Assembly: GCA_031426555.1 (NCBI GenBank)
Contig: JANPLN010000047.1
Span: 1-47,253 of the forward strand
Direction: 5' to 3'
Source of the DNA: Bdellovibrionales bacterium
GTDB taxonomy: Bacteria > Bdellovibrionota > Bdellovibrionia > Bdellovibrionales > JAGQZY01
Length of the DNA stretch: 47,253 nucleotides
Positions 2,782 to 35,030 of this stretch are shown here, one piece after another; the stretch's first letter is position 1; each line of letters opens with the position of its first letter. The notes beneath the pieces were generated by a model. That model did not search any database and was not told the origin of the DNA. It saw only the letters and a list, made by a program, of their open reading frames with translations. The translations under genes and the position numbers were made by a program.

Positions 2782-2817
2782 ATAGCCATTATACGACCAT
2801 CAGCCGCTAGGAGCAAG

Positions 2818-4011
2818 TTACGGTTTTTTCCAAAGATCCGATAAATAAATTAATGCCAAAAGGGAAATCGAATCGCTGTAATAGTCGTATTTTTGCTTCA
2901 TAATCAAATCCCAGCCCCTGTTTACAAACGTTTGGTATTTTGCATCGGTGGCTGCAGCCATGATCCAAGGTGCCGTAAATGCTGCGGACGAATAACTCAC
3001 TTGGGGTTTTCCATCTAAAAAATACCCGGCTTTGATATTTTCAGGTCGACCCGCAGTTTTTTGAACAAGCCACCTAAGACTTAACGAAAGGGAGCTCAAG
3101 GCTTCCAAGCGATTATTCAGTTTATAATCGATCGCCATTCTTAAAGGATATCGACAGGCGTTCCAAGAATAATCCACCAAGCCTTCATCCAAATAATTGA
3201 AGGGTGCGGGGCGAGGATTTCTATCTATAACAAAGTCCGGCATGAGTCCGCTGATGGGTGAATGGTTTTTTTGTATAGACGCTGTAAGCTGATAAACAAC
3301 TTGTACCGCATTTTTCCAAAATGGATCCTGGGTGTAGGTGTAAAAACTTTCAAAATGGGAAGCCATCCAGTCCGAGGATCGCGTATTATAATTGTCTTGG
3401 TCCCAATCACCCAAATTTGTACGCCCGCTAGAGGTAAAATCCGACACTTTGATTCCTTTTTGAATCAAATTCTTAGCTAAACTGAGATAATTGTGCGCTC
3501 CGCCTTGTGAACCCCACTTTTTGTGGGCGAGTAAAAGGGCATAAGCGATATCCAGATCTCCATCCGTCGCGGAACCATAACGATTTGAGAAGTTTTTGTG
3601 AATCATCCACGACATTGTGTAAGGATTGAGGGTACTCCGAAAAGTATTATACGAATTTACAAATCCATCAAAAATATTTCTTGCATTAACGTCAAAGTGA
3701 GCCAACTGCACAAACGTTAACATTCCATAACCGTGCGCTTCAGAGGTGGACACCGAGTTTTCTCCATTGGGACCGAGGCCTTGCATCTCGATGTAGTAGA
3801 GAAGAGTTCCATTGCTTTTTTTAAACGTTCTTAAATATTTACTCTTCCAGTAAAAGTAATAGTCTTTGAGCTGCATGGTCATTTTTTGTGACGACAGATG
3901 ATTGGGCCTAAAAAGCTTACCACTCGTTACTGTGTTGCTCGAAACCAGTTCTGATGCAAAAGACTGATGCATAAAAAGAAAACTGCAAATGACCAAAACA
4001 AGCTGCTTCAC
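2818..4011 (-). CDS. Glycoside hydrolase family 8, chitosanase/endoglucanase (ChoK-like), secreted
   Basis: TSEAHGYGM (acid Glu), SATDGDLDIAYALLLAHKKWG, LGDWD, TRSSDWM, PAPFNYLDE..YSWNACRYP, YYSDS; GTG 4011 after GGAG RBS, then signal peptide. Confidence 0.88.
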   Translation of the reverse strand: MKQLVLVICSFLFMHQSFASELVSSNTVTSGKLFRPNHLSSQKMTMQLKDYYFYWKSKYLRTFKKSNGTLLYYIEMQGLGPNGENSVSTSEAHGYGMLTFVQLAHFDVNARNIFDGFVNSYNTFRSTLNPYTMSWMIHKNFSNRYGSATDGDLDIAYALLLAHKKWGSQGGAHNYLSLAKNLIQKGIKVSDFTSSGRTNLGDWDQDNYNTRSSDWMASHFESFYTYTQDPFWKNAVQVVYQLTASIQKNHSPISGLMPDFVIDRNPRPAPFNYLDEGLVDYSWNACRYPLRMAIDYKLNNRLEALSSLSLSLRWLVQKTAGRPENIKAGYFLDGKPQVSYSSAAFTAPWIMAAATDAKYQTFVNRGWDLIMKQKYDYYSDSISLLALIYLSDLWKKP

Positions 4012-4073
4012 TTTATCTCCGTTCGTTGAATACCTATTCAACCAACGGAGTTTTGCTTACTTTTATAAAGAAT

Positions 4074-5705
4074 TTATTCGTGTCGTTTTGAGAATTTCGC
4101 TACTAAGGTCGCAAATAACAGGCCTGTTGATGACATCGTCAACGTGGGTTCATTGGTGATGTAGTCCTGAACATCGTCGTGAACAACAGCCATCTTGTCT
4201 TGCCAGGGTTTAAAACGATCTGAAGTTTTCAAAACAATTTTGTGTGAATTAAAAACTTCTTCCGATACCGGACCTGGTGCCCAGTATCCAGGTACATTTA
4301 TTTTTTTCAGATCGGCGACTTGATGGTGGGGATACAAAAAATTGTTATGACCAACCTGACTTACAAAACTCACACCCCATTGATTCGCTCCCAACATGTA
4401 ATCCCACTGGCTGAGTGCAAACTGTAAATACGCTTCCGTAGGAACGAGTTGATGGTACATTAAGGCTGCGAGAGCCATTCCCTGGATATGCAAATTGCAG
4501 CCCCAGAAAAATGATTCTACAGAGTAATTGAAAATTGTTTTTTGGCTTTTCGTTAGCGCCGATTCAAAAATTGCTTTCAACTGCTTTAATGCTATCTCTC
4601 TGTGAGGTTCGCTATACAAAGCCAGTTTGTAATAGACGAGGATGTGCACATGACCATAATCAAACGTGTATGGGTTTTTTAAGGTTTCGATAAAGCGTAG
4701 AGCCTGCACCAAGTACGTTTTATCCCCTGTCAGGTAAAACATCTCGAGAGCCGCCAATGCCATGTCGTCTTTACCCTGTTCTTCATCATAAAAGTTATTA
4801 GTAGCCGGCTGTGATTTTGTGAGCTTGAGCGCCCTTTCGTAAAGCTGTCTCGCTCGAAACTCCCACCGCGATGCCTCTTTTGGGGCGGTCGATTTCTGCA
4901 GTTGCGCCAGTAAAGCCATCGCCGCGACGGTTCGCCCAAAAATATTTTCCCCGCTGTTATTTTCCAACGGATACACCTTAACAATTTTATTAGTCACTGC
5001 TGGACTATCTGGAAGGGACCAGTAGGCATGTTCGGATTCATCGCCTACTTGTGAAAGCGCAGGCTCGGACAACATCTTATCGAGCCACTGAACGCCCCAG
5101 AGAACCTCGTCCACGATAGCAGGCTCCCCGCTCGCCACCGCGGACTGGGCCAGCAAAAGGGTTGCAAAACTTGTTGTCAGCGTGAATCGGATGTAATCTC
5201 CAGCATCATGCCAACCACCATCAATATTTCTTCCATCGAGACTCGAACCGTCGTTCATCGTTAATGTCCTCGACGAGCAGGTTTCGCACTTCTGAAATTT
5301 AAAAAATTTTAAGGTTTCTAGAGCCAACCTAGAAGACGACTCTTTTTGAACACGCAAAACCGGAGACTCTTCTCCATTCACTTGCAAATTATACGCCCCC
5401 TCGTCGAGCCCAGGAACTAGAATTTTATAAGTCGCAAAGTCTTTGAAGTCGCTCGAGGCTGAAACCGACAGATTTCTCTTTTTTCCTTCACTCACTAATG
5501 TTGCGGAAATTTTTTTTTTACTTTTTTCCAGCAATACCCAAACGATAAATGGTTGGTGGGGAAGGTATCCAAGCTGATTGTATCTAAAGTGCACTTTCGG
5601 AGCTCGTTGCAAAGAAACTAAAGCGTAGATCATGAAAAGAATAAAGAAAACACATAGAAAAAAACCGATAAAATATTTATACTTTAAAACGATATTACGT
5701 TGCAT
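4074..5705 (-). CDS. Glycoside hydrolase family 9 with N-terminal TM anchor and Ig-like domain
   Basis: N-terminal hydrophobic helix; YNQLGYLP (CelD_N-like), GGWHDAGDY, DYMLGAN.WGVSF, PHHQ, DYITNEP; catalytic residues present. Confidence 0.88.
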   Translation of the reverse strand: MQRNIVLKYKYFIGFFLCVFFILFMIYALVSLQRAPKVHFRYNQLGYLPHQPFIVWVLLEKSKKKISATLVSEGKKRNLSVSASSDFKDFATYKILVPGLDEGAYNLQVNGEESPVLRVQKESSSRLALETLKFFKFQKCETCSSRTLTMNDGSSLDGRNIDGGWHDAGDYIRFTLTTSFATLLLAQSAVASGEPAIVDEVLWGVQWLDKMLSEPALSQVGDESEHAYWSLPDSPAVTNKIVKVYPLENNSGENIFGRTVAAMALLAQLQKSTAPKEASRWEFRARQLYERALKLTKSQPATNNFYDEEQGKDDMALAALEMFYLTGDKTYLVQALRFIETLKNPYTFDYGHVHILVYYKLALYSEPHREIALKQLKAIFESALTKSQKTIFNYSVESFFWGCNLHIQGMALAALMYHQLVPTEAYLQFALSQWDYMLGANQWGVSFVSQVGHNNFLYPHHQVADLKKINVPGYWAPGPVSEEVFNSHKIVLKTSDRFKPWQDKMAVVHDDVQDYITNEPTLTMSSTGLLFATLVAKFSKRHE

Positions 5706-6595
5706 GTTAGTTGCAACCCTTCATAAATCCAAGCTGACTGATTTTGCGAACTTCGAATTTTATTATAAACCAAACGAACATGATTACCATCAAATTGTCC
5801 CCATTGAAGACCCGCAGCCATTAAATATCCTTCGCCGGATAAATTATTTTCTTTAAAATAATTTAGATTCAAAGCAAAAATGCCGGAAAATTTACCATAT
5901 AGAGGAAAGCTGGAATCAAAGCGCGGTCCGTGATTAAAAAATCTGTCTGGCGACCAGTAGCCAACAGCTGTTTGGTCGTAAGACAAACCGTGAACTCCGT
6001 ATCCAACCCAGATCCACGGCCAGCTCGGAGAGAGCCCATAGTGAGTGGAAACATCATAAAGATAGCCTTTGTTTTCGTCGTTTAGATGGGTATGGAAACC
6101 TTGAACACTTGATTTCCAAATGGGATTCCAGTGATAGTTGAATACGATTGTTTTTCTAAATTCGTTTAACAAAACGCCCTGCGACGCAGTGCTTTTGAGA
6201 GTTTCGGCCAAAGATTGTTTTTCGAGAGAAACTAGAAAATCGAACTTGTTCAATACTTTTTGATAACTCAGTTTCCCCATGACTGTCTGTCGATTGTCGA
6301 CAGGTCCCTCAAGCCAGACATGGCTCAAAGCCAAACCCAACACACCTTGTTCCGACAGAATCACCTCGCGCCCAACCTCAAATTTGTGCACGCCCGATGT
6401 TCCAGGCTCAAGTTCTCTGCGAAACTCTAACTCTTGCTCTAAAACACCCACCCACGTTTTATCAGAAAAATCATATCTTGCACTTCCGCCTCGCAAATAG
6501 ATTTCGTCTGATGTTCTGATAGTCTCCAACACCAGATTCGATCCACAACAAACTCCGCAAAAAAAGAGAACTAGAGCAAAGATGTAAAACTTCAT
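5684..6595 (-). CDS. Outer-membrane beta-barrel protein, putative polysaccharide export pore
   Basis: Signal peptide, amphipathic strands, C-terminal Phe, GYWSP motif reminiscent of BcsC/PgaA-type export barrels; ATG 6595 lies 2 nt after the upstream stop. Confidence 0.6.
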   Translation of the reverse strand: MKFYIFALVLFFCGVCCGSNLVLETIRTSDEIYLRGGSARYDFSDKTWVGVLEQELEFRRELEPGTSGVHKFEVGREVILSEQGVLGLALSHVWLEGPVDNRQTVMGKLSYQKVLNKFDFLVSLEKQSLAETLKSTASQGVLLNEFRKTIVFNYHWNPIWKSSVQGFHTHLNDENKGYLYDVSTHYGLSPSWPWIWVGYGVHGLSYDQTAVGYWSPDRFFNHGPRFDSSFPLYGKFSGIFALNLNYFKENNLSGEGYLMAAGLQWGQFDGNHVRLVYNKIRSSQNQSAWIYEGLQLTCNVISF

Positions 6596-6597
6596 CT

Positions 6598-7017
6598 CTA
6601 GGTCCAACGCCAATAATCAATCTGATTGGAGATGGGCTCAGAGAATGATGGGACTTTTGTTACATTGTCGATATTAATGATATCTGAACAAATATCGCCT
6701 TTTTTTAAAAAACCACCAGGCTTCGGACAATAAATATGAGGACGTACGTCGATGAAAGATTCTTTCTGTGGTATCTCTAAACCAATTGACGGAACCACCA
6801 ATCGCGGCAGAAATACATCCAATCGACTAAAAAGCGTTTGCACGTAGAATGATGTTGAGACTGCGATAATGAGAGCGGGTGCCGATGTGGAAATAAAAAT
6901 TCTTTTTTTCACAGCTTTCGAATTTTGCAGGTTTCTGTATTGTCCATAAAATAATAAAGTCGCCGAAAAACTGATAAAAATAACGATTCCTACGATTTGT
7001 TCAATATATATCAGCAT
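6598..7017 (-). CDS. Small membrane protein (2 N-terminal TM helices), putative synthase partner (PgaD-like by size and topology only)
   Basis: 139 aa, two hydrophobic segments; start overlaps the 3' end of the GT2 gene. Confidence 0.55.
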   Translation of the reverse strand: MLIYIEQIVGIVIFISFSATLLFYGQYRNLQNSKAVKKRIFISTSAPALIIAVSTSFYVQTLFSRLDVFLPRLVVPSIGLEIPQKESFIDVRPHIYCPKPGGFLKKGDICSDIINIDNVTKVPSFSEPISNQIDYWRWT

Positions 7018-8392
7018 GTAAACTCTCTTTGCTAGGCGCTAGACCATATCGATCTAGTTTATCCCAGCTCATCGCCGTTTTTTGCCACTCTTCTCGCAGA
7101 CAAAAAAACTTCCATGTTGTGATAATGATTGAAAAAGTAAATCTAGAAAAAATAAGAACAATAAACTGAAACAAAACGCCACGTCTAAAGAGCAAACCGG
7201 AACATAGAAGCAGCAAACTCTCAGATAAAAAAATCATCGCGTTATAGCCAACAAATAAATTAACTTTGGCTGAGGCCACAAATTGCCCCAAGAAAAACAT
7301 CAGCAAACAAAAGTCCATCACCGGTGTCCAAACTTTTTCCATCAAAAGGTAAGAAACAAAAATATTCTTATGCTTGAAGGATGCACCTTGAAGGGAGTCC
7401 ATATTTTTTCGAAGAGCTTGATAAATTCCCCGAGTCCAGCGGTAACGCTGTCGCATAAGCGCCGAACATCGTTCAGGCACCTCAGTGTAAGAAATCATCT
7501 TTGGTTCGAATACAACCCGACCACCGGTGGTGATCAAGCGCAAGGTGAGTTCAGTGTCTTCAGCAAAAGTGGCGGCATCGGTTTCATAGCCGTTTACAGA
7601 CTCCAGTGAAGAGCGGCGAAAAAGGCCTACAGGGCCAGGAATGATGTTAACCAAACCAAAATTAGACATGAAAGATTTTTGTAAATCTCCCAGTCCGTAC
7701 TCCAAATCTTGATACAATGCGATCCATTTTTCGGAGTTAGCTACGCACACGGCCCCGGCAACTGCAACCACACTGGAGTCGCTTTGTAAGTGAGCCACTC
7801 CTTTGTCGAGGGCCTCTGGATGCAACAAACTATCGGCATCCACACACAAAAGGTATTCACCCCGTGCAACTCTAATTCCACGATTCAGTGCATGGGCTTT
7901 GCCAGCGTTTTTCTGAGTAACAACTTCAACCCTGTGTTGGCACTCCGGGATCAACGACTTTACAATTTCGACAGTGTTATCAACACTTCCGTCATCAGAT
8001 ACTATGATTTCAAAATGAGGGTACTTACTACGGTCCAAACTTTGCAAACTCTTGCGTATGACCGCAGCTTCGTTATAGCAAGGAACAATAATGGAAACTA
8101 AAGGAGGATTTGAATCTATTTGTGCGGCAACAGATTTTTCAAGTTTAAATTTCCAGCGAAGAGCCCCGAACAAATAGAAATACATTCGAGCCACTTGATA
8201 AAACGATACAAAAAAAATAAAAAGATAGCCAAAAACAGGATTTTTAATCCAACAACCCACAAAGAAACTGCCGAACACCAAAACGAGGGATAAGGATTTG
8301 AGTCGCGATTCACTAGCGGGTGAGAGTGATGGTGAATTCAGCTGTACATTCGCTTCCACGGGAACCTTCAAAAATTCGGTTGAGCTGCTCAA
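7001..8392 (-). CDS. Processive GT2 glycosyltransferase (PgaC/IcaA-like polysaccharide synthase)
   Basis: VSIIVPCYNE, DDGSVD, KAHALN, VDAD, AEDTELT, QRYRW (D,D,D,QxxRW); 2 N-terminal and about 3 C-terminal TM helices; no PilZ domain. Confidence 0.9.
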   Translation of the reverse strand: MSSSTEFLKVPVEANVQLNSPSLSPASESRLKSLSLVLVFGSFFVGCWIKNPVFGYLFIFFVSFYQVARMYFYLFGALRWKFKLEKSVAAQIDSNPPLVSIIVPCYNEAAVIRKSLQSLDRSKYPHFEIIVSDDGSVDNTVEIVKSLIPECQHRVEVVTQKNAGKAHALNRGIRVARGEYLLCVDADSLLHPEALDKGVAHLQSDSSVVAVAGAVCVANSEKWIALYQDLEYGLGDLQKSFMSNFGLVNIIPGPVGLFRRSSLESVNGYETDAATFAEDTELTLRLITTGGRVVFEPKMISYTEVPERCSALMRQRYRWTRGIYQALRKNMDSLQGASFKHKNIFVSYLLMEKVWTPVMDFCLLMFFLGQFVASAKVNLFVGYNAMIFLSESLLLLCSGLLFRRGVLFQFIVLIFSRFTFSIIITTWKFFCLREEWQKTAMSWDKLDRYGLAPSKESLHADIY

Positions 8393-8564
8393 AAACTAAA
8401 CAGGTTCTACAGCTTTTAATACGTTGAGTCAAATTTGTTTTTAATTAGTAAACTATTGATATATTTGTAATCTTTTCATTTACATTGCAATGCGTAATAT
8501 TTCTTGATAGGACTCTAATGCATCGCACATTTCACTGTCCAATAGGCCCATGGAGATCGATTCT

Positions 8565-9788
8565 ATGATCAAACGAATCTGCTCAAGATACTTAGCAATT
8601 TACTTAACTTTTTGCCTTTTTCTTCTTGGATGGCATTTACCTGCGTCTGCGCAAATGCTGACTCCATCCTCCGTTATAAACTATTGGGACTCCAAGTCTT
8701 TCGAAGTCACAAACACTGGCACGGCCCGTGAAACGATTCGGCTCACAACGAAGGGCGATGGATCGCCAAGTTTTATTGGCTGGGAGCTTCCTCAGCCAGT
8801 AAATATGAAGGAAGTATTTGTCGAGGCTTACATAAAGATCCAGGACTTAGAATCCTGCGGTGGAATCGAACTCAGACTCTCGAACAAAGCAGATCAAAAT
8901 TCTTATATCGCCATCCAATTGCCATTTTTTACGGATCCATTGTTCAATTGGGTTCAACCCGGTGGGTGGCTGCGAATCACTTTAACTATGGGTGAAGCAA
9001 AACTGGTGGGGTCTCCGGATATTACAAAAATTAATAAACTTGGGTTTTACATAAATGATTCGGGCTCGCCCGATAAAAATACTCCTTTTTCAGTAGAACT
9101 CAGTGGCGTCGCATTCTCACCTGTTGGCAAGACCGCATTTATGTCGATCACATTCGACGATGGAATCGACGACCATTTGTTAGCCGCGCAAATCATGCAT
9201 AATCATGGCTTACGAGGAACGGCCTACATCATGCCCGACGCCATCGGACAACCGGGGTTTTTAAAGGAAGAAGATTTAAGCATTTTGTACAATACCTACC
9301 ACTGGGGTATTTCTTCCCATGGATCCATCCCTTTTACAGAGTTTGCACCTGGAGGCGTAGAGCAACATTCCGAAAATGTACTTGGTTTTTTAAAACAGCG
9401 CGGTTTTGGCTTTTCCTCTTCCCATATGGCCTACCCACTGGGGCGATACAATCTTGATTATGTGTTGCCTATTATTTCTAAAAAATTCACGACTGCAAGA
9501 ATCGCTAGCGGCGGCGCCGAAACCTTTCCTCCTGCGGATTGGAAACGCCTAAGAGTTGTAAATGTAATTCCATCGGTTACAGCAGAAATGCTTAAGGAAA
9601 GAATCGAGAAAGCGAAGATCCATAAAGAGTGGATCATCCTTATGTTTCACCATTTGGTCGAGGGAGAACCTCAGAGCGATCTCGAATATAACTTTAAAGA
9701 GTTCGAAAAAGTGATGAAAGCGATAAAAGATTCACAGATTAAAACCCTGCCAATACATGAAATGTGGGAAATACACCGTGTCGACTAA
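8565..9788 (+). CDS. Secreted polysaccharide deacetylase (CE4/NodB) with N-terminal beta-sandwich domain, paralog 1
   Basis: Signal peptide; SITFDDG, SSHG, AYPLG, ILMFHH; ATG 8565 after GGAG (alternative start 8550). Confidence 0.85.
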   Translation: MIKRICSRYLAIYLTFCLFLLGWHLPASAQMLTPSSVINYWDSKSFEVTNTGTARETIRLTTKGDGSPSFIGWELPQPVNMKEVFVEAYIKIQDLESCGGIELRLSNKADQNSYIAIQLPFFTDPLFNWVQPGGWLRITLTMGEAKLVGSPDITKINKLGFYINDSGSPDKNTPFSVELSGVAFSPVGKTAFMSITFDDGIDDHLLAAQIMHNHGLRGTAYIMPDAIGQPGFLKEEDLSILYNTYHWGISSHGSIPFTEFAPGGVEQHSENVLGFLKQRGFGFSSSHMAYPLGRYNLDYVLPIISKKFTTARIASGGAETFPPADWKRLRVVNVIPSVTAEMLKERIEKAKIHKEWIILMFHHLVEGEPQSDLEYNFKEFEKVMKAIKDSQIKTLPIHEMWEIHRVD

Positions 9789-11007
9789 TAAACAAAAAGT
9801 ACTAGCTGCTCTTTTGTTAACACTTTTTACTACAGTGCATGCTGAGGACTGCAGAGACGCATCGGCTTACGAAACGTCAGCCATCGATCTCTCCACCAAC
9901 GAAAGTACACAGTTGTTTGATCAGCTCCCCACTCAATGCGTGGAAACGTCCATGCAACTTATGAAGCAATGGACAAAATCCTTGAACCGATCTTCGAAAC
10001 CGTTTGTTCACTGCGATCCCACCTCGGGGATTCTCGAGCGCAGCAAGACTCCACTCTGCCTTACCGAAAAATTAATCGCGAACACTCAAAAACTGTTTGT
10101 CGCAGTGACCGATTGCTTGGATATACCTGCTAAGGCGCTTTTCCCCCTGATCAATGTGGAGAGCGGTTTTTTGCCAAATGCCGCCGCACCGAATGGCGAA
10201 GACTCAGGCATCGGACAAATTACACCGATCGCGGCGACCGACGTAAATTCTCGGTGGTTATGGTTAGAGGCACATGTCACGGGATCCACAAAATCTAGCT
10301 GTAAAGCTTTAGTACCCCATTTGCCCACCCTTAAATTTGATGAAAGCTTGGTGGAAAACCACATTTGTGAATTCACTCGCCCGGAAATAAACCCAGTACG
10401 GAATATTCTTTATGCAGGATACATCTTCTTGTTAAATACCAAATATTTTAATGATTTGTTTCTGGAGCAAAATCTTACAAACCGTCTCGGAATTTTGAAT
10501 GGTCAGTCGATAACCACAGAACAACAAAACCAAGTTATTCACCTCCTCAGCATTCTTTCGTATAACAAGGGCTTCGCGTGGATGCGTGAAAAATTTCTGA
10601 TGTATTTGGCGCGAGAAGAAGCAAAGCTAAGCTTTGATATTGACGACCTTCTCATTCTTGCCAACGAAATACAAACTATTGAAAAGCAGATTCAAGAAGC
10701 CAAGGAAGCACTGATCGTACAAGGAATTCCAGAATTAAGGGAAGTCTGGCGACAAAAGAAGCTTCGCTATCAAGAACTTTTAAATTTAAGACAGCACGAA
10801 TATGTGCTGGATTTCAAAGTTTTTCATTATCGAAATTTTTCTACGGATTCTATGATTGGTTTTTTTAAGCAGCAGGACTCGAGCCGCTATATCGAGTTGG
10901 TCATCGAAAGAAACGATTCCATTGAAGATAAATTCGGTGTTGGAACATGCAGCGACTTCGATCACCCTCGCCGAAGTTCCGCCCTCGATCATATGATTTG
11001 GTTATAA
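9778..11007 (+). CDS. Secreted lytic transglycosylase (SLT domain) with coiled-coil insert
   Basis: Signal peptide; INVESGF (catalytic Glu), SGIGQIT, LSYNKG motifs; start uncertain (9757 or 9778). Confidence 0.75.
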   Translation: MSTNKQKVLAALLLTLFTTVHAEDCRDASAYETSAIDLSTNESTQLFDQLPTQCVETSMQLMKQWTKSLNRSSKPFVHCDPTSGILERSKTPLCLTEKLIANTQKLFVAVTDCLDIPAKALFPLINVESGFLPNAAAPNGEDSGIGQITPIAATDVNSRWLWLEAHVTGSTKSSCKALVPHLPTLKFDESLVENHICEFTRPEINPVRNILYAGYIFLLNTKYFNDLFLEQNLTNRLGILNGQSITTEQQNQVIHLLSILSYNKGFAWMREKFLMYLAREEAKLSFDIDDLLILANEIQTIEKQIQEAKEALIVQGIPELREVWRQKKLRYQELLNLRQHEYVLDFKVFHYRNFSTDSMIGFFKQQDSSRYIELVIERNDSIEDKFGVGTCSDFDHPRRSSALDHMIWL

Positions 11008-12146
11008 ACGTCTTTGATTGTACGAACTTGTTTTTTAATTGGAGCAAGTTCTTTTAATAGAATTTCAAAAGATTCAAAACTGTATTCCAGATCGTTTGTA
11101 GGCATCTTCGCGGGCACCAAATAATGGAACATTAAAATCAACCAATCCCCTTGTTCCACCGCCTCTTTGGCTAAAAGAGCAATGTCCTGTGGTTTAGTTC
11201 CTGCTGTGACATTGAAGGCTCTTAGCTTTAGGTTTTGTGCTGGAGGGAGGGTTTCAAGCCCTGCGCTTGCAATACGTGCTGTTTTATATACTTTCTTAAC
11301 ATCCTCTAGAACTTTGGCATTCTGTTTTCCTAAGGGAAATGCCAAATGCTCTGGCACGAAACTCCCAGAACATTGTTTCTTCATTGCGAGAAAATCTTTT
11401 TGAATAAAACCACTCAAATTGGTTTTTTCAGTAAATGGTTGAGTCGCATGAGAGCCCACCATCCATCCTTCTCTTGCCATTTTACAAAGGTCGTCCACGC
11501 TGATGTAACCGGGAGTCCCCAAAGCTTCTTGAATCACGTAGGCAGTGGCAACAAAACCATGCCTGCGAATGAGGCGATGTGCATCGAGCAACGAAATATA
11601 CCCGTCGTCAAAAGTAAAAGACACACGTCCTTTTTTGAAGAATTTTTTTTGCTGCACGGATAGATTCTTAAACTCGATTGAGTATTTTTTCGTATCTTTA
11701 AAGCGAATAAAAGCCGAGAAGACTTTGTATTCGCCATCGGCTTTTTTGCCCTTGAGAAAGTGAGATAAACTTAGCGTGATGGTATTCAAGGTGTCTGACT
11801 GCACCCAATTAAATTCTGGATCAGAAAATAAGGGCAATTGATAAGATATAAATGTTTTGTCGCCCGATTTTTTTTGCAGCCTCAAATCAATTCCTGCAAG
11901 ATTTAGGATATCTTTTGAGGCAATTTCAAATTTTAAAAGAGTTTGATTATCCATTTTTTTGCTAAGATTCCACTCAATCAGCAAGGGATCTGTGGTGCTT
12001 TCTGCCGTTAACGTACATTTAGATTTTTCAGACTTAACCGCGCCCTTACCCCAACTCAATCGACAGTCGGGCTGGTGCGCAAAATTCTGCGCTTGAGCCT
12101 GAATAAGAAAGAGGAAAAATAAAAAAAGGACACCAATGGCTGACAT
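10989..12146 (-). CDS. Secreted polysaccharide deacetylase (CE4/NodB), paralog 2
   Basis: SFTFDDG, GSHA, AFPLG, ILMFHY; shares LP.F.DP.FNWVQ and KTARIAS.G.ET.PPA-type segments with paralog 1; alternative start 12170. Confidence 0.85.
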   Translation of the reverse strand: MSAIGVLFLFFLFLIQAQAQNFAHQPDCRLSWGKGAVKSEKSKCTLTAESTTDPLLIEWNLSKKMDNQTLLKFEIASKDILNLAGIDLRLQKKSGDKTFISYQLPLFSDPEFNWVQSDTLNTITLSLSHFLKGKKADGEYKVFSAFIRFKDTKKYSIEFKNLSVQQKKFFKKGRVSFTFDDGYISLLDAHRLIRRHGFVATAYVIQEALGTPGYISVDDLCKMAREGWMVGSHATQPFTEKTNLSGFIQKDFLAMKKQCSGSFVPEHLAFPLGKQNAKVLEDVKKVYKTARIASAGLETLPPAQNLKLRAFNVTAGTKPQDIALLAKEAVEQGDWLILMFHYLVPAKMPTNDLEYSFESFEILLKELAPIKKQVRTIKDVYNQII

Positions 12147-12217
12147 GTCTCTATGGTAAAGACTACTCAATGATGTGTCAAAGAGAATGGAGCAGAAAAA
12201 GCTCTGCTCTACTTTGA

Positions 12218-12727: not shown

Positions 12728-12803
12728 TGTTTGCCTTTTAACAATGCCAATTCGCAATTTTTGGCACTTTTGAGCCGTTAAACTGCTTTAAACAGTTCTG
12801 AGA

Positions 12804-12820
12804 TGGGTACAGATGCTGCA
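12804..12820 (+). promoter_or_regulatory. sigma54 (-24/-12) promoter
   Basis: TGGGTACAGATGCTGCA = GG-N10-GC, about 28 nt before ATG 12848, which has an AGGAGG RBS. Confidence 0.55.
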
Positions 12821-12847
12821 ATGACAGCCAGGATAACAGGAGGCTTT

Positions 12848-13861
12848 ATGTATTCTAAAAAGAAATCATCTAAAACAGTTCGCAACTATTCGGCGCTCGC
12901 GCTTGGAATCCTTGGATTCAGTTATGGCGTAGCTCAGTGGAAGGGACACGTTATGGGACGCGCCTTCTATGTTGCAAAAAGTAGCGTAAAGCTCAATTCA
13001 GCCACAGATGAATTTCGCATGGCAGTTATCTGTCATAAATTACAAAAACAAGATTGCAAAGAAATGTCTCTTGCCAATGCTTACAAAAAATCACCGGAAA
13101 ATCCTAAAATTGTTGGCGAGTATGCCGTGGCACTCACCGAATCTGGAAAACACGATCAAGCCATCCTTACCTATCAGAAATTCTTTTCCCTCACCGAAGG
13201 TTCTCCTCGCCACATGGTGAAATATGCTGAGAGCCTTGGCCAAAAGGAATTCTATACAGACGCTAAAGAGTGGTACTACAAGGCAATTAAAGCTCAGCCC
13301 GAAAATTTAGAATTCGCCGAATCAATGATGTCGATGCTCACGTTTTCACATCAGTATGGAGAAGCTTTAAGCATCATTGGTCATTTTAATCTTGTGATTC
13401 CAAAGACACAGAAAATTTGGCACAACCTCGCCTTAAAAATCAAAGCTGAATTTAAATCTTATCAAGAAAAGTATGCCATCAAAGAAATGACAATCTCAAA
13501 ACTTGGAAACTACTTTTTCGCCCCAGCAGTCATGAATGGATCTTTGGAGACCCAACTGTTTATTGTAAACCCAGAGTCTGTTTATACGACCGTGGATGCA
13601 CAGTATCTTAAAAACAATAATATTCCACACACATCGAAGGGTGAAATCACTGTGACGGCCAACAACGGCCAGCAACTCACTGGTACTCGTGTGATCATCC
13701 CAGAAATTATGTTTGGCGCATGGTCTCTTAAAAACGTAGAAGCCATTGCCTGTGACAACTGTGCTTTCCTTGCCGGAAAAACAGTGCTTAACAAACTTTC
13801 TGTGCAGAACACGCAAGTGAACAATACACAGGTGAGCCTTTTATCAATGAAAGAGAAGTAA
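12848..13861 (+). CDS. Membrane-anchored TPR protein with C-terminal retropepsin-like (degenerate) domain
   Basis: N-terminal TM; TPR-like helices (GKHDQAILTYQK, AKEWYYKAIKAQPEN); C-terminal clan AA pattern (..TANNG..., LAGKTVL) but FIVNPES replaces FLVDTGA. Confidence 0.7.
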   Translation: MYSKKKSSKTVRNYSALALGILGFSYGVAQWKGHVMGRAFYVAKSSVKLNSATDEFRMAVICHKLQKQDCKEMSLANAYKKSPENPKIVGEYAVALTESGKHDQAILTYQKFFSLTEGSPRHMVKYAESLGQKEFYTDAKEWYYKAIKAQPENLEFAESMMSMLTFSHQYGEALSIIGHFNLVIPKTQKIWHNLALKIKAEFKSYQEKYAIKEMTISKLGNYFFAPAVMNGSLETQLFIVNPESVYTTVDAQYLKNNNIPHTSKGEITVTANNGQQLTGTRVIIPEIMFGAWSLKNVEAIACDNCAFLAGKTVLNKLSVQNTQVNNTQVSLLSMKEK

Positions 13862-21106: not shown

Positions 21107-22087
21107 CTACTGCAAAATCACGGGGTCGGCGACGGGATTCTCAACGGCTGGAGCCGTTTGTGGCGCTGCTGGAGCTGGAACTGTCTCGACGACTTGCCCG
21201 CCAATGGCACACCATTGTTGGTGCCGCGCTAACATCTCTGGATTGAACTCCACCAAAAAGTTTTGCCCACGCGCCTGGATGGCTAAGCGGTTTTCGGCAA
21301 AAACATTCTTCTGATGGTTACCATTGACGGCACTGACAGCATCATTTCCCGTGCGGTCGCGATCGCGGTTACGATCTATCCGTCGAAACACAACCTCGCT
21401 GGGTGTATTCCCATCGACTGCCCCGAGTTCAAGCTCTTCGGTCACGGCACCCGAAGTCAGAGACAACTTGTATCGCGGCTCCAGACCCTTGCACGAATAG
21501 GTCACTCTGGGATTCAGTGTGGTTTCGTTATGCGAAAAGCGAGTGATGGGAGAACTTGTGAGATGATTCATCTGACAGGTTTCTCCAGACGCAGGTGTGC
21601 CACCCACAGTGAGAGGCTTATTTAGGCGACTGCAAGTCTCCCGCAGACTCGTGAGGTTGGCGAGTTCGAATTTATAATCGACGGAGAAGTTGTTAAAAGC
21701 CAAACGCAACCGATTTTGGTTCGCAACGTTATTCGCAGCCGGAAAGGTTATGACATTTGTATTCGTAACCGTACCTTGTTCGTTTTTCGAGACGAAAATC
21801 GCATTTCCCGTCTGACCTGCGGGCGGCAAAGTAAACACGATGGCGCGTCCGTTGGGATGTATGGTGTTGAGGGCCACAACTCCCTGATGACAGGTCAGCT
21901 GAGCACTCAAAAGCGTTGCGTCCGTGGCCACAGTGGATTCAGTCCGTTGAATTATATTGGCCGCGGGCAAGGAGCATTCAGACGGAACCGAGGGGACATT
22001 GGCAATGTCTCTTTTGCCCGAGGTCATGCTGCTACAACCGATCAAAAATAAAAAACTTCCGGCTACTAATAACTGAGCTAACTTCAT
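21107..22087 (-). CDS. Hypothetical lipoprotein with internal two-domain duplication
   Basis: Lipobox LIGC; two Cys-flanked beta-rich halves each containing NRL; AGGGGG RBS. Confidence 0.75.
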   Translation of the reverse strand: MKLAQLLVAGSFLFLIGCSSMTSGKRDIANVPSVPSECSLPAANIIQRTESTVATDATLLSAQLTCHQGVVALNTIHPNGRAIVFTLPPAGQTGNAIFVSKNEQGTVTNTNVITFPAANNVANQNRLRLAFNNFSVDYKFELANLTSLRETCSRLNKPLTVGGTPASGETCQMNHLTSSPITRFSHNETTLNPRVTYSCKGLEPRYKLSLTSGAVTEELELGAVDGNTPSEVVFRRIDRNRDRDRTGNDAVSAVNGNHQKNVFAENRLAIQARGQNFLVEFNPEMLARHQQWCAIGGQVVETVPAPAAPQTAPAVENPVADPVILQ

Positions 22088-24286: not shown

Positions 24287-25717
24287 CTAAACTTTGGTAA
24301 ATTCCAGGCTCGGTGGCATTGAAGAGCTTTGCGAGCGACGATTTTTAATTTGAATCGCAACGATTCCCAATGCTGCCATAGCAATCAATGCAATCGCCGC
24401 CACAGTTAAAACCGAATCATCGGCCGTTTGAACAGTGGGAACATTGCCAGACGCTGGCATTGACGGCATTTGATCGGACGAGATGGGCGCGCTGGAGTTG
24501 GACATGCTGGGGTCTTCGCTCGTCATTGCCATGGGCTCGGGCGAAGGCGGAATCTCTGGCAAAGTCTCTGGCTGCGGAGGGGCCGACTCTTTATCATTCA
24601 CCACACCTGCACCTGTGGTTTCTGTTCCAGAGGACGCGAGCGTCGTGGATGCGGGATCAAAGGCTTTAGGTTCCGTGCCACTCCAGTAACGAATTTTTAA
24701 GCCCGAGGGCAACTGTGCTTGCGTTTGCAAGGTATCATTTGTGGCCCATATTTCTTTCCAACCGTCTTCGTGTCCTAAAACATCACGACCGATCTTTTTG
24801 ATGTCGTCTCCCTTCCGGGTAAGGTAGTACTGAGGAGCCATTTTATTATCTTCGAAGTAAGTTAAAATGGTTCTCTTATCTTCGGGACGATTCGGCGACA
24901 GGTAATAAACCTTGTCCCCCGTTTCGATGCCCTTTGAAAGATGCGGATTGTCGGCAAAAAGCTGACTTGTTTTGTCTTCGTTGTAAATTTTCTGACTTAT
25001 AATCGCCAAGTCTTCATTGGGACGAACCACGTATACCGAGTTCATTAAACGCTCGTTGCGAAAAAACGGATCCTTGTTAATTTTGGCAAGCGGTACAATC
25101 TCTTGTGCTGCTTTCACTGAAGGAAGTGGCGGATCCACCTCGGCAACGAGCGGATCCGATACTCCAAGATCTTCTTGGGGCACTGGGGGATTGATAACTT
25201 CGAAACCATCCGACGAGAATTGGGATGGCGGCTCTTGAACGGCGGCAGCGCTCGGCACATCCGCTGAGTTGCCTCCGGCAGTTGCCATGGTATCTGGTTG
25301 GGCCAGCGGATCCACCGGCACGGGGGGCGGGTTTCCCGCAGGTGCTCCCTCGGGAGGTGGTGTTGCCGTGGCTATATTTTCTTTTTCGAGTTCGTTTTTT
25401 AAATCTTTTTCTTCAAGTTTGTCGGTATCTGTGGCTGGAGAATCCGAATCTTCCGCTAAAAAATCATCATCTTCAGCATCCACCCCGTCTGCATCTTGCG
25501 AATCTTCATCGGCAGTTTTGTCGCCGTCTTCCTCGGCGGCGTCACTGTCGCTCGAAGCGTCCTCCGCCACATCAGTGGGGCTCTCGGCATCTTCTGCCTC
25601 TTCAAGCTCAGAATCTAATTCGTCTTCGAAACCATCATTCTCAGATTCGTTGGTGGTGCAGGAGACTGCGATGGAAAATACAATAAAAAGTAGAGACAGA
25701 AAGCGAAGAAACTTCAT
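24287..25717 (-). CDS. Acidic/Pro-rich lipoprotein with two LysM-like domains and a C-terminal TM helix
   Basis: Lipobox AVSC; YVVRPNEDL..ISQKIY and YLTRKGDDIKKI...W..IWATN LysM-like repeats; TM VLTVAAIALIAMAALGIVAI followed by KNRR. Confidence 0.75.
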   Translation of the reverse strand: MKFLRFLSLLFIVFSIAVSCTTNESENDGFEDELDSELEEAEDAESPTDVAEDASSDSDAAEEDGDKTADEDSQDADGVDAEDDDFLAEDSDSPATDTDKLEEKDLKNELEKENIATATPPPEGAPAGNPPPVPVDPLAQPDTMATAGGNSADVPSAAAVQEPPSQFSSDGFEVINPPVPQEDLGVSDPLVAEVDPPLPSVKAAQEIVPLAKINKDPFFRNERLMNSVYVVRPNEDLAIISQKIYNEDKTSQLFADNPHLSKGIETGDKVYYLSPNRPEDKRTILTYFEDNKMAPQYYLTRKGDDIKKIGRDVLGHEDGWKEIWATNDTLQTQAQLPSGLKIRYWSGTEPKAFDPASTTLASSGTETTGAGVVNDKESAPPQPETLPEIPPSPEPMAMTSEDPSMSNSSAPISSDQMPSMPASGNVPTVQTADDSVLTVAAIALIAMAALGIVAIQIKNRRSQSSSMPPSLEFTKV

Positions 25718-30638: not shown

Positions 30639-33494
30639 TTATTGAGCGCTGGTACGGCGCTCGTCCTCGGTGCCGCTGGGGGGCCCCTGATCAGCACTCA
30701 TACGATGCACATTTTCGATGTACGGCATCGAGCACAGTGGGCCCAAGTCAGGATCTTTAAAAAGCAACTCAATAAATTTTCCCGTCACCTCTGACTGCCA
30801 TCCCGCCGACGTGGCAGACTGCGGTCGATCCGTCATATCCGTAAGTTTCATATCTTGCTTAAATGGTTTCCAACCAAAGAAGTTCCATTCAGATGAATTC
30901 ACCCTATATTCTAAAACCTCATTCCAATACTTCTCCTGGTTCACAACAATCCAATCCTGAAGTTTGGCTTCCACTTTTTCACTGCACTGGGCAAGGCGGC
31001 TTAACTCGTTTAAAATCAATTGTCTGTCGGCATCAGAAGAGGAAAGGTTTTTCAAACCTTTCTCAAAAACATGTTCTTTTTCGTAAAACAACAAATTGAA
31101 AGACTTCAAACGGTTGGAGCGCGCGAACGATGACAGGGCACTGATCACCAAAAGCACATCTTCGCGAGTGGCTTCGAGGCGCTGCAGCTGGCTTGGAAAC
31201 CATTCCGTTTGTTTTTTAAAGGCGCCAATTTGTGCGAGACCTATCCCTTTACCGGCCTCAGTTTGAGCCGTCAAAAGAGCCGGAATGGATTTTTTTAAGA
31301 AAATATATTGAATCAAGTTTTCTTCAAAATTTGGAAAATACGAATAAAGGCTTTTTGCTTCTTCGGCAGAGAGTCCGCCTTTAATAGTCTCGCGAATGTT
31401 AGGCACAATGTGTTTCAAACCGACGTTGAACTCTTCGATGGTTAATAAATCATTTTCATCTTTATCGAAACGCAAAAATAAACTCTCTGCATACTGGCTG
31501 ATCGATCCCATCATGCGGAAGGCATCTGTATCGAAGGGCTCATTAACGATCAGCCCCTGCCGTCCCGCCTTTTCAAGATAATTTAAGTACAACTCCCGAT
31601 CCGCTCTTGGATGGGTTTTAAGATATTTAATAAGTCGTGGAAGAGAAAGTAACATGACTTCTTCGTGCTGCTCTGCAAACGCACTTCGCGCGCATTCGGC
31701 ATCAAAACGATGATAGCCAAAGACATCAAATGGTGCATTTGCATCACGGCACCCAGCAAAATGATTTTGCATAATGTTGTCTGACTTGAGTCCCGTGGAT
31801 ATGGCAATTTCAAAATACTCGACGGCTTCCGAAAAATTCATCTTTTCCGGTTCATTGGATTGGGATCCAAAAAGATTAATTTCCTGAAGCGCCTGTTTTC
31901 CCGAAGTGCGACTTCGCGGATCACCAAGTTTCAGATCCAGAGCCAATGGTCGCAACCACTGATAAAACTCCTGAGACTGTTGAGAACTTAAATAATAGTC
32001 CACTAAGTTACTCTTTTGACCATTCCCATTGAAAGGTCGTACAAACAATTCGGCCAAAGTGTAAATGCTATTAAAAAGAACAAGATCTTTGTAGTTCACA
32101 TTGTCTTCGCCAATGACCACATAATCATTCCAATGGACATGATCTACTCTTGATAAAACACGAATCAGGTTACCCACAACCGGGCTGCTCCGACTGGTTC
32201 GTTGCCTGTAATGAGAATTCACAAATGCTGCCTTAGAACCACTGAATGCTTGTGCGTTTGTGTTGATCCACTGCTGCCGTTCCTGCCACTGTGCAATCAC
32301 TCGTTTCAGCACATCGACATTTTCTACATTTAAAAATTGCAGATCGCAGTCGCCACGACACTCCTGTTCTGTTAGCCAGCGGCCAAATAACTGAGGTACC
32401 ATTTGACGAAGAGTATCCGCCTTTAAACCACTATCGACAAAACAGTCAGTTCGCTCCAAAGTAACGATAAAATCCTGTATATAACGAAGCGGGATTTTTT
32501 GCGATGGTGCTTGTACAAGAGCGCTTCGCACTCCTTTTAAGATTTTATCTTGGGTTGCAATTAAGGCGCTGATCTTCTCATTAGTAAAAACATTAGGATG
32601 TTTTGTCATTCGAGCAACAAGTCCGGGGAAAGTAAAGATGGTTGATATATCTTTCTTAAAAACATGCTCGTCGGAAATAAACTTATGAAATTGCATGTAT
32701 CCTAGATACAAAAACGACAAATTGCTTAACACATCAGGCAGCTTTTGAATTTCCACTGTGCCTTCTTGGCCCACTGAGAGCATGGCCTGAAGGGAATTTA
32801 CGATTTCGAAGGTTCTGTTCCAATGATTTGTGTCGGCATCCTGGCTCAGGAAATATTTTATCAGGCGAATGAGACCGTTGTATTCAAATGTACCGGTGGA
32901 TTTACGTGGCAGATTGCGAAAAACAGAAATGACTTTTTGCAAACGTATTCCAGAGGCTTCGAAACCTTCAAGATCCGTGCTCTGATCTTTGGCAAAAAGC
33001 ATTCTGCGATCAGGAGCCAAAGTTGCAAGACTGTCGTAGACATAATCGATATAAAGAAGGAGTTTTCTTACGTCATCCTTAGAGACTGTTTCAACATCGC
33101 CACCAAGCAAAGATTGCTTTAACAAAAAAGCTTCTTCCATAAATTGGATAGAATATTCATAAGAATCAAAAGCTAGGACTAAGAAATCGTGAATCTCTTG
33201 AGGCGTATAAGATCCTTTTTTTGCACCCTGAGTGTGTTCAACAAAAAGCTTCACCGCATCCTTCAAGCATTTTTTCATCTTCACAAGCTCGGTCGCTATT
33301 TCGCTATCGTCGCGCTGAATATTAAAGTACTCGCGAAGAAGTTTCCCGTTGTCCTTAACACAGGAAACCCCTGACTTTTCACTGAAACTCAACTCGTACA
33401 CGTTGGATTTTTTAGGTTCGTCTTTAAAAAAATAAGAACACGACGTCGTCACTAGCAGCACCAGTCCTAGAACAGTCCATTGTCTAGAAAACAT
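30639..33494 (-). CDS. Large helical hypothetical lipoprotein with EF-hand-like loop
   Basis: Lipobox-like TTSC; 951 aa; FDKDENDLLTIEEF. Confidence 0.75.
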   Translation of the reverse strand: MFSRQWTVLGLVLLVTTSCSYFFKDEPKKSNVYELSFSEKSGVSCVKDNGKLLREYFNIQRDDSEIATELVKMKKCLKDAVKLFVEHTQGAKKGSYTPQEIHDFLVLAFDSYEYSIQFMEEAFLLKQSLLGGDVETVSKDDVRKLLLYIDYVYDSLATLAPDRRMLFAKDQSTDLEGFEASGIRLQKVISVFRNLPRKSTGTFEYNGLIRLIKYFLSQDADTNHWNRTFEIVNSLQAMLSVGQEGTVEIQKLPDVLSNLSFLYLGYMQFHKFISDEHVFKKDISTIFTFPGLVARMTKHPNVFTNEKISALIATQDKILKGVRSALVQAPSQKIPLRYIQDFIVTLERTDCFVDSGLKADTLRQMVPQLFGRWLTEQECRGDCDLQFLNVENVDVLKRVIAQWQERQQWINTNAQAFSGSKAAFVNSHYRQRTSRSSPVVGNLIRVLSRVDHVHWNDYVVIGEDNVNYKDLVLFNSIYTLAELFVRPFNGNGQKSNLVDYYLSSQQSQEFYQWLRPLALDLKLGDPRSRTSGKQALQEINLFGSQSNEPEKMNFSEAVEYFEIAISTGLKSDNIMQNHFAGCRDANAPFDVFGYHRFDAECARSAFAEQHEEVMLLSLPRLIKYLKTHPRADRELYLNYLEKAGRQGLIVNEPFDTDAFRMMGSISQYAESLFLRFDKDENDLLTIEEFNVGLKHIVPNIRETIKGGLSAEEAKSLYSYFPNFEENLIQYIFLKKSIPALLTAQTEAGKGIGLAQIGAFKKQTEWFPSQLQRLEATREDVLLVISALSSFARSNRLKSFNLLFYEKEHVFEKGLKNLSSSDADRQLILNELSRLAQCSEKVEAKLQDWIVVNQEKYWNEVLEYRVNSSEWNFFGWKPFKQDMKLTDMTDRPQSATSAGWQSEVTGKFIELLFKDPDLGPLCSMPYIENVHRMSADQGPPSGTEDERRTSAQ

Positions 33495-34842: not shown

Positions 34843-34865
34843 TCAATAGCCTCCACACAGTACTA

Positions 34866-34882
34866 CGCAAGAAACGTTCCCA
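34866..34882 (-). promoter_or_regulatory. sigma54 (-24/-12) promoter
   Basis: Minus strand TGGGAACGTTTCTTGCG = GG-N10-GC with TTGC, about 12 nt above the GGAGG RBS of the 34842 gene. Confidence 0.6.
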
Positions 34883-35030
34883 CAGGCTCCAATAAGACTC
34901 ATTTCATAGCAAGAAAAACCCTCAAAAACTCGAAAAAAGACATGAATTGTCACGATCGCTTAAAAAAATTACAGTGCCTTAAAAAGCCATAAAATTCACT
35001 TATGGGCTAACCCACCAGGCTTGAGCCTAT

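Follow-up and report, generated by a model that had tools for sequence, protein, structure and literature searches.

A horizontally exchanged eight-gene cassette of a Bdellovibrionales bacterium as a probable synthase-dependent polysaccharide secretion system

Introduction

What is made by the eight genes that lie between pyrF and a 138-aa open reading frame (ORF) on contig JANPLN010000047.1 of a Bdellovibrionales bacterium (assembly GCA_031426555.1)? The contig was analysed over its whole length of 47,253 nucleotides, hereafter called the window, of which the gene cassette in question, with genes on both strands, occupies 9.4 kb (2794..12216). An earlier note on this DNA had read the locus as a new synthase-dependent polysaccharide system possibly producing a chitosan-like polymer. 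Few such systems have been characterised and, if the product actually is a beta-1,4-linked chain of N-acetylglucosamine and glucosamine (GlcNAc/GlcN), the cassette would show one way in which bacteria make chitin or chitosan as a polymer. We conclude that the cassette very probably is a synthase-dependent polysaccharide secretion system, the family GT2 glycosyltransferase of which belongs to an apparently uncharacterised lineage. As its product we tentatively favour a beta-1,4-linked, GlcNAc/GlcN-containing and partly deacetylated chain.

Results

The cassette is a unit exchanged at one chromosomal slot

All eight ORFs were verified at the coordinates and on the strands given in the earlier note. 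The pyrF site was compared in all five genus mates (G001-G005). Against G003, DNA identity ends at window position 2793 and restarts at 12217, the flanks being 87-88% identical. Hence, the span of 2818-12170 originally proposed matches the edges seen against the genus mates and represents a natural cassette which includes the gene of a lytic-transglycosylase-like protein (SLT) and that of the second of two CE4 proteins (CE4b). In three of the five genus mates (G002, G004, G005) pyrF lies directly beside the 138-aa ORF, i.e. the site is empty. The gap in G003 is filled by a different cassette of 10 kb (L275:2493-12472), just the end of which is visible before the contig end in G001 (L279:2114-4006); a cassette with WecB is accordingly present in two of the five genus mates, its NfrB-like synthase being seen in the fully visible one. 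The eight genes form one block which is exchanged horizontally at one slot and which is absent or replaced in the closest relatives. The GC content of the cassette amounts to 42.0% compared to 46.0% for the genome, and equally low values occur in 13 of 573 genome windows. No direct repeat is evident at the cassette edges in the G003 alignments, for which no repeat finder was run. A terminator-like hairpin (12188..12211, not assigned to a strand), recognised by consensus match only, is located at the right edge. A promoter scan returned 13 sites versus 19.4 in shuffles, i.e. fewer than in shuffled sequence.

The alternative cassette of G003 encodes an NfrB-like GT2 of 447 aa (363 bits on the NfrB model, which is under its cut-off), a WecB scoring above the family cut-off, GH113 and GH26 proteins, a DUF2334 protein, a 243-aa ORF with a weak match to 3-keto-disaccharide hydrolases and unassigned ORFs of 282 aa and 573 aa. 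It is a candidate NGR-like system in Bdellovibrionota, and the swap between both cassettes suggests surface-glycan switching in predatory bacteria. Given its 9.4 kb and its natural edges, the cassette of the window is suited to transfer in one piece to a laboratory strain.

The synthase belongs to a GT2 lineage of its own

The central gene (7001..8392, minus strand) encodes a processive-type GT2 synthase with membrane helices and the D,D,D,QRYRW signature which had been recognised in the earlier note (DDGS133, DAD185, AED277, QRYRW315). A PilZ domain is not matched by Pfam in this protein. Its QxxEY motif and its C-terminal tryptophan loop (WxKLxR) resemble those of PgaC and NodC, and the corresponding loop of BcsA, which we take to be FxVTxK, is not present. 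The acceptor region, IIPGP, is nearer to NodC and to a group of fused CE4-GT2 proteins than to PgaC, and Pfam assigns a Chitin_synth_2 match. Taken together, these motifs favour GlcNAc as the donor sugar. Among the NCBIfam models PgaC_IcaA scores best (192 bits, cut-off 422), followed by NodC (112 bits) and CelA (60 bits, cut-off 699). Judged by equivalog score and nodAB context the protein is not NodC (112 bits compared to a cut-off of 550). Its homologues are commonly named PgaC or cellulose synthase despite failing those family tests.

A GT2 phylogeny had been named in the earlier note as a check. In three quick trees with SH-aLRT support, which contain no chitin synthase or hyaluronan synthase sequences, the lineage is placed apart from the groups of PgaC, of NodC and of the fused CE4-GT2 proteins, all three being supported at 98-100 (PgaC at 100 in two of the trees). 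The lineage consists of two well-supported halves the union of which reaches a support of just 70 and 53, and the branch joining it with NodC is supported at 28. One tree drew NodC and a Roseomonas GT2 into the lineage, a placement to which we gave no weight in view of the long branches. Among the matches listed, members occur in Bdellovibrionota, Ignavibacteriota, Chlorobiota, Myxococcota, Gemmatimonadota, Acidobacteriota, Campylobacterota and in one Rhodanobacter; a scan of genome contigs with a single-protein query gave no match, and the homologues were obtained by an alignment-based scan. We found no characterised member of the lineage.

The PgaC_IcaA score raises the alternative that the machinery produces beta-1,6-linked poly-N-acetylglucosamine (PNAG) in ordinary or modified form, the lineage being that of a divergent PNAG synthase and the hydrolases of the cassette having shifted their specificity or being otherwise employed. 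A sister position of the whole lineage to PgaC is in line with this idea, as it stands in a constraint test (approximately unbiased p value, p-AU, 0.236). Nesting of the window GT2 within the PgaC group, however, is marginally rejected (p-AU 0.046), the 192 bits are far under the PgaC cut-off and the identity to E. coli PgaC amounts to 29%. In addition, neither a PgaB homologue (two PgaB queries) nor a PgaD homologue was found in the loci of the GT2 lineage or in the genome. We consider a PNAG product unlikely.

The synthase is accompanied by CE4 and barrel genes in other genomes

Close homologues of the GT2 (E < 1e-45) are present in 4 of 26 genomes of the family and in 21 of 401 sampled genomes of the phylum, the own genome (G000) being counted; at E 1e-45 all five genus mates lack it. 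The CE4 family of the cassette with its domain resembling a carbohydrate-binding module (CBM-CE4) is found in exactly these 4 of the 26. In the phylum sample nine other genomes match CBM-CE4. Eight of these matches are full-length and all eight genomes contain the GT2, while the ninth match is weak and partial and its genome lacks the GT2. We gathered 114 loci of the GT2 lineage, which were reduced to 94 at 95% identity; 42 of these, the window included, have at least 5 kb on both flanks. A CE4 gene is located within 8 kb in 40 of the 42 loci and a PgaA/BcsC-like barrel gene in 39, which bears out the co-occurrence the earlier note had named as a check. Any of four hydrolases is found in 26 loci (GH9 in 14, GH113 in 7, GH18-like in 5, GH8 in 1). 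Many of the 42 loci stem from related Ignavibacteria/Chlorobi and are therefore not independent. The nearest complete relatives retain the barrel, the GT2 together with the small gene behind it, and a divergent arm in which an SLT gene lies between two CE4 genes; GH8 is present in two of them only (L015 and L016). The hydrolases are interchangeable among loci, and the SLT and both CE4 proteins are conserved members of the cassette. The earlier note had described the SLT and the second CE4 as following the system; their presence stands, but they are not trailing neighbours.

Outside Bdellovibrionota the genes usually run from a KaiC-like ATPase through a TPR-barrel, the GT2 and the small protein to a long CE4. 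The ATPase, which in some loci also has a receiver domain, is encoded ahead of the TPR-barrel for example at L018:5567-6799, L021:1195-2874 and L030:6379-7353, and many Bdellovibrionota loci have a response regulator at this position; the window has neither. The N-terminus of BcsE has been modelled on KaiC (PMC7439463). Since the KaiC-like profile misses E. coli BcsE, a link between the two stays a lead. In a Rhodanobacter metagenome-assembled genome (MAG; L034:6034-21059) a GT2 of the lineage and a CE4 are embedded in a bcs-type operon with genes for a BcsE-like protein, an 888-aa ORF, BcsD, a proline-rich ORF, two BcsQ and BcsB, a BcsA-like ORF without catalytic motifs and a weak, truncated GH18-like piece. 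This arrangement, a single locus cut at 10 kb, fits export via cellulose-type machinery. Two further loci (L125:7609-16916 and L132:2514-12092) contain unassigned ORFs of 976-1045 aa and about 460 aa between the GT2 and the long CE4, and in one MAG two ORFs stand in place of a single CE4 gene (L033:8448-9658), owing to a frameshift or an assembly error.

The small membrane protein and the export barrel

Directly behind the GT2 gene, and overlapping it, lies a gene for a 139-aa protein (6598..7017, minus strand) with two hydrophobic segments (residues 8-24 and 40-56), in line with the two transmembrane segments of the earlier note. In 11 other loci, too, a small ORF of this kind comes after the GT2 gene. 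The protein is a candidate partner of the synthase. No Pfam, NCBIfam or ESM Atlas family was found for it. The comparison of the gene pair with PgaC/PgaD drawn in the earlier note would fit the small protein in position, size and its two helices only; no sequence similarity to PgaD was found.

The adjacent gene (5684..6613, minus strand) encodes a predicted outer-membrane export barrel of 309 aa which contains a YWSP motif. Its assignment to the outer membrane in the earlier note agrees with a distant relationship to the PgaA and BcsC barrels, with the correction that a TPR domain is missing. A hidden Markov model of the barrel family matches PgaA at E 1e-7 and 9e-5 and BcsC at E 3e-3 within a small reference set, so that the barrel is nearer to PgaA than to BcsC, a point in favour of PNAG. 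The ESM Atlas returns barrel clusters including a PgaA_barrel cluster (0.97, the family being assigned on 12% of members). A profile search of the Protein Data Bank (PDB) with the barrel family yielded nothing significant, PgaA (4y25) appearing at E 0.39, Pfam gave no match, and folding of the single sequence led to no usable model (predicted local distance difference test, pLDDT, 35). The barrel is homologous to the C-termini of TPR-barrel proteins in other loci; such TPR-barrels are present in relatives outside Bdellovibrionota. Neither a TPR scaffold nor a receptor for cyclic di-GMP was found in the cassette, and searches of the genome for TPR-barrel and KaiC-like proteins gave no match. 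A TPR and aspartyl-protease-like ORF at window position 12803-13861 lies outside the cassette and is kept in all five genus mates. By this context it is not the missing TPR scaffold.

Two CE4 proteins flank a lytic-transglycosylase-like protein

The divergent arm of the cassette starts with CE4a (8550..9788, plus strand), which consists of a signal or anchor helix, a CBM-like beta-sandwich and a CE4 deacetylase fold. Pfam gave no match for it and a PDB profile search with CE4a alone nothing significant; its identity as CE4 protein is established by the predicted fold (pLDDT 88). The best structural match is 8qpg, the turret head of HFTV1 (Z 34.1, root-mean-square deviation 2.6, 344 aligned residues), with the next one following at Z 19.3. 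This archaeal virus capsid turret protein is the closest solved structure to CE4a over both domains, and the model suggests that the two share a family of glycan-binding deacetylases. Residues 31-197 match CBM11 (Z 12.9) and the N-terminal domain also resembles CBM16. CE4b (10989..12170, minus strand) is a paralogue with 33% identity to CE4a which is convergent on the SLT gene and which passes the Pfam cut-off (29 bits). Both CE4 assignments of the earlier note are thus confirmed. The CE4 NodB fold is present with motifs 1, 3 and 5, and TFDD, H, YP and MFH are invariant in the cassette family. By sequence the CE4 profile is nearest to 6dq3, 6go1 and 4hd5, which we take to be an IcaB/PgaB-like group; this, too, speaks for PNAG.

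The SLT (9757..11007, plus strand) carries the motifs ESG135 and GIGQ151. Its Pfam score stays slightly below the threshold (20 bits compared to 21.3, E 5e-4), and its ESG and GxGQ motifs are invariant in ten homologues. The four best non-self matches in the phylum are copies beside the GT2. A PDB profile search with the SLT family gave nothing significant. Weaker relatives, often in several copies (L271-L274), occur in 49 of 53 genomes of the neighbouring family, and Pfam barely recognised the members scanned. Such a distribution would also suit a role of the CE4 proteins, the SLT and the hydrolases in predation or foraging, with the GT2 as a passenger or a lipid glycosyltransferase, and Bdellovibrio reportedly uses CE4 enzymes on prey peptidoglycan. 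Against this stand the co-occurrence of the CE4 proteins only with the GT2, the rank of Bd3279 in the fold search with CE4a (37th), the absence of the GT2 from all genus mates at E 1e-45, and the QxxRW motif of the GT2 together with its conserved barrel neighbour. Of all explanations considered this is the least probable.

The hydrolases point to a beta-1,4-linked backbone

The GH8 hydrolase (2818..4041, minus strand; Pfam 66 bits) is predicted to be secreted and falls into the chitosanase/glucanase subfamily, the members of which often cleave glucans as well as chitosan. Its best PDB matches are the chitosanase 7cju/1v5c (E 5e-84), the glucanase 5xd0 (1e-65) and CelA (4e-18), the nearest structure being that of the Bacillus chitosanase ChoK. 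It is remote from BcsZ (21.9 bits, cut-off 299). The catalytic residues E101, E286 and N294 align with E74, E261 and N271, i.e. a Glu-Glu pair and an Asn in place of the CelA-type Asp. The aromatic subsite residues are retained according to the residue list for GH8 enzymes of the ChoK/CSN-MN type in PMC6362164.

The GH9 hydrolase (4074..5705, minus strand; Pfam 192 bits) has an N-terminal hydrophobic anchor and intact GGWHDAGD, HHQ and TNEP motifs. With GH9 proteins that accompany this GT2 lineage in five further loci, Ignavibacteria/Chlorobi among them, it shares 25-27% identity. Both GH assignments of the earlier note pass the Pfam cut-offs. The GH18-like proteins beside the lineage are weak matches. 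GH9, GH113, GH18-like and GH8 proteins are known mainly for beta-1,4-linked substrates and we know of no beta-1,6 activity in GH8, GH9 or GH113, which counts against PNAG. Together the hydrolases point to a beta-1,4-linked backbone, not to chitosan specifically. Since both CE4 proteins, GH8 and GH9 possess N-terminal hydrophobic segments, we infer that they act as modifiers and hydrolases on the periplasmic side.

Which polymer is made?

A number of observations weigh against a GlcNAc/GlcN-containing product or at least against chitosan. Of seven acidic glucosamine-subsite residues (E59, D63, D131, D135, E263, D315, E362; list from PMC6362164) GH8 retains one, D135, in an alignment by eye, other acids being nearby. 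GH9 has 27 PDB matches, the best of which are endoglucanases and none of which is named glucosaminidase, so that a glucosamine-active GH9, a possibility raised in the earlier note, finds no support in the PDB matches, no direct comparison with glucosaminidases having been made. The nearest complete relatives contain GH113 in place of GH9, and the GH113 of one relative matches beta-1,4 mannanases in the PDB; to our knowledge neither cellulase-type GH9 nor mannanase-type GH113 enzymes act on chitosan. GH113 also occurs in the unrelated NfrB-like cassette, so the family does not fix the substrate. In 16 of the 42 loci none of the four hydrolases is present. In CE4a, CE4b and the family alignment the second His of motif 2, part of the Asp-His-His metal triad, is absent by sequence, a pattern which, in the wider lineage, just 19 of 74 long CE4 proteins show. 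The near-invariant His292 could replace it; with the second His missing family-wide, deacetylase activity is likely, not certain. The trees leave open the position of the GT2 lineage relative to PgaC, NodC and a mat-type group. This neighbouring group holds a locus of mat-type layout (L062, with a gene of no assigned family, a CE4-GT2 and an acyltransferase), and MatAB is reported to make PNAG, as judged from antibody, dispersin B and periodate tests (PMC5972031). The MatAB CE4 resembles enzymes for 1,4-linked substrates (PMC5972031), and this precedent means that families of helper genes can mislead on linkage.

Finally, a Listeria protein which we take to be PssC, picked out by its BcsB-like and GGDEF neighbours, carries a C-terminal motif similar to that of our GT2 and presumably makes a different polymer, so the motif is not specific. 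This similarity and the GH113 shared with the NfrB-like cassette (22% identity) would be explained by another amino-sugar chain of the kind made by Listeria Pss or E. coli NGR, e.g. one containing N-acetylmannosamine or built from a repeat unit of two sugars. No WecB homologue, however, was found in the genome or in the loci of the GT2 lineage and the similarity to the NfrB-like GT2 is not significant (E 0.08), which renders such a chain very unlikely.

The acid-poor cleft of GH8, the endoglucanase-type GH9, the mannanase family GH113 in the nearest relatives, the resemblance of the N-terminal CE4 domain to CBM11 and CBM16, the incomplete triad and the bcs accessory genes of L034 could likewise reflect a neutral beta-1,4-linked product, a glucan or a chain of glucomannan type, with the CE4-fold proteins as binding scaffolds or O-acetyl esterases. 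Such a product is improbable as the GT2 motifs are PgaC/NodC-like and not BcsA-like, no BcsB was found in the genome, CE4 genes with invariant motifs in the cassette family are present in nearly all loci and GH18-like genes accompany five of them.

A beta-1,4-linked GlcNAc/GlcN chain, as put forward in the earlier note, stands as the most likely reading, but strict chitosan is a weaker proposal than it had been owing to the single retained GH8 acid, the endoglucanase-like GH9 and CE4 proteins without the third metal ligand in their sequence. Equally, GH8 as a chitosanase is borne out by subfamily and catalytic residues and not by the acidic subsites. For a GlcNAc/GlcN-containing chain the following mechanism may be envisaged. 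The GT2, probably aided by the small membrane protein, would polymerise UDP-GlcNAc, possibly plus UDP-glucose, and thread the chain across the inner membrane. Binding of the chain and removal of some of its acetyl groups would fall to the CBM-CE4 proteins, which would also substitute for the missing TPR scaffold. For export the SLT would make an opening in the peptidoglycan and the barrel would pass the chain to the outside. GH9 and GH8 would trim the chain or clear stalled chains. The product may be a variable coat or adhesin swapped between strains like a capsule locus. A wider picture, possible but rather doubtful, is that of a multi-phylum class of systems by which Gram-negative bacteria secrete a coat of polymeric chitosan or of a glucosamine-glucose copolymer, of which predatory Bdellovibrionota would possess a TPR-free miniature with its own SLT, swapped against the NfrB-type cassette in a phage-driven coat switching.

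Other features of the window

Three large minus-strand ORFs (951, 452 and 665 aa) at 30639-37028 have no Pfam match at E 1e-4. The same applies to the segments 21107-22087 and 24287-25717.

Comparison with known systems

A description of the cassette architecture was not found in the literature searched, mostly without subscription journals. Thiothrix-named homologues led us to consider a link to the glucosaminoglucan of the Thiothrix sheath; as no paper on it was found among those listed, this stays a lead. The main text of an operon survey (PMC7112194) names neither Bdellovibrio nor Ignavibacteria, and its supplements may list such loci.

That the locus is neither pga nor bcs, as stated in the earlier note, follows from family scores, trees and gene content. 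With pgaABCD and icaADBC it shares a GT2 of comparable size that has no PilZ domain, a small membrane protein encoded after it, a CE4 and a PgaA-related barrel. In contrast to these systems its GT2 neither reaches the family cut-off nor falls within the PgaC group, a TPR part and a CE4-hydrolase fusion of the PgaB type are missing, and a CBM-CE4 pair, an SLT, GH8 and GH9 are present. The presence of a GH8 and the weak relationship of the barrel to BcsC recall bcs, as do the KaiC-like ATPases of distant relatives, reminiscent of the BcsE N-terminus, and BcsB, BcsD and BcsQ in the available part of one of these loci. The cassette, however, lacks PilZ and BcsB, has a different gating-loop motif and its GH8 is far from BcsZ.

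The GH18-CE4-GT2 fusions and the locus with the layout of Streptomyces mat belong to a GT2 group next to the lineage. Its active-site and C-terminal motifs resemble those of the cassette GT2 and a CE4 is present throughout, but this group is separate (support 98-99) and of fused architecture compared to the stand-alone GT2 of the cassette. The fusions, of about 1100-1200 aa, are widespread in Bacteroidota, Alphaproteobacteria and Acidobacteriota (most of L040-L097). NodC and the bacterial chitin synthases are GT2 enzymes of beta-1,4 GlcNAc synthesis which share with the cassette GT2 the proline-glycine acceptor region, a QxxEY-like motif and Chitin_synth_2, yet the NodC score remains far below its cut-off. 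As described in PMC5122149, Chitin_synth_2 also matches enzymes other than chitin synthases, and bacterial chs operons carry DUF1501/DUF1800 and epimerase genes, unlike the cassette.

E. coli NfrAB-WecB has its likeness in the NfrB-like and WecB cassette which occupies the same slot in G003; the window differs by the lack of a detectable WecB and by a GT2 without significant similarity to the NfrB-like one. NGR is described in PMC8669472 as a surface glycan that serves as a phage receptor. A viral connection of another kind is provided by HFTV1 gp31 (8QPG), for which excerpts of 10.1101/2024.12.09.627619 describe a galactose-binding-like domain and a putative zinc-dependent deacetylase. It is an archaeal virus capsid protein and merely 14% identical to CE4a, yet it displays the two-domain architecture of CE4a over 344 residues.

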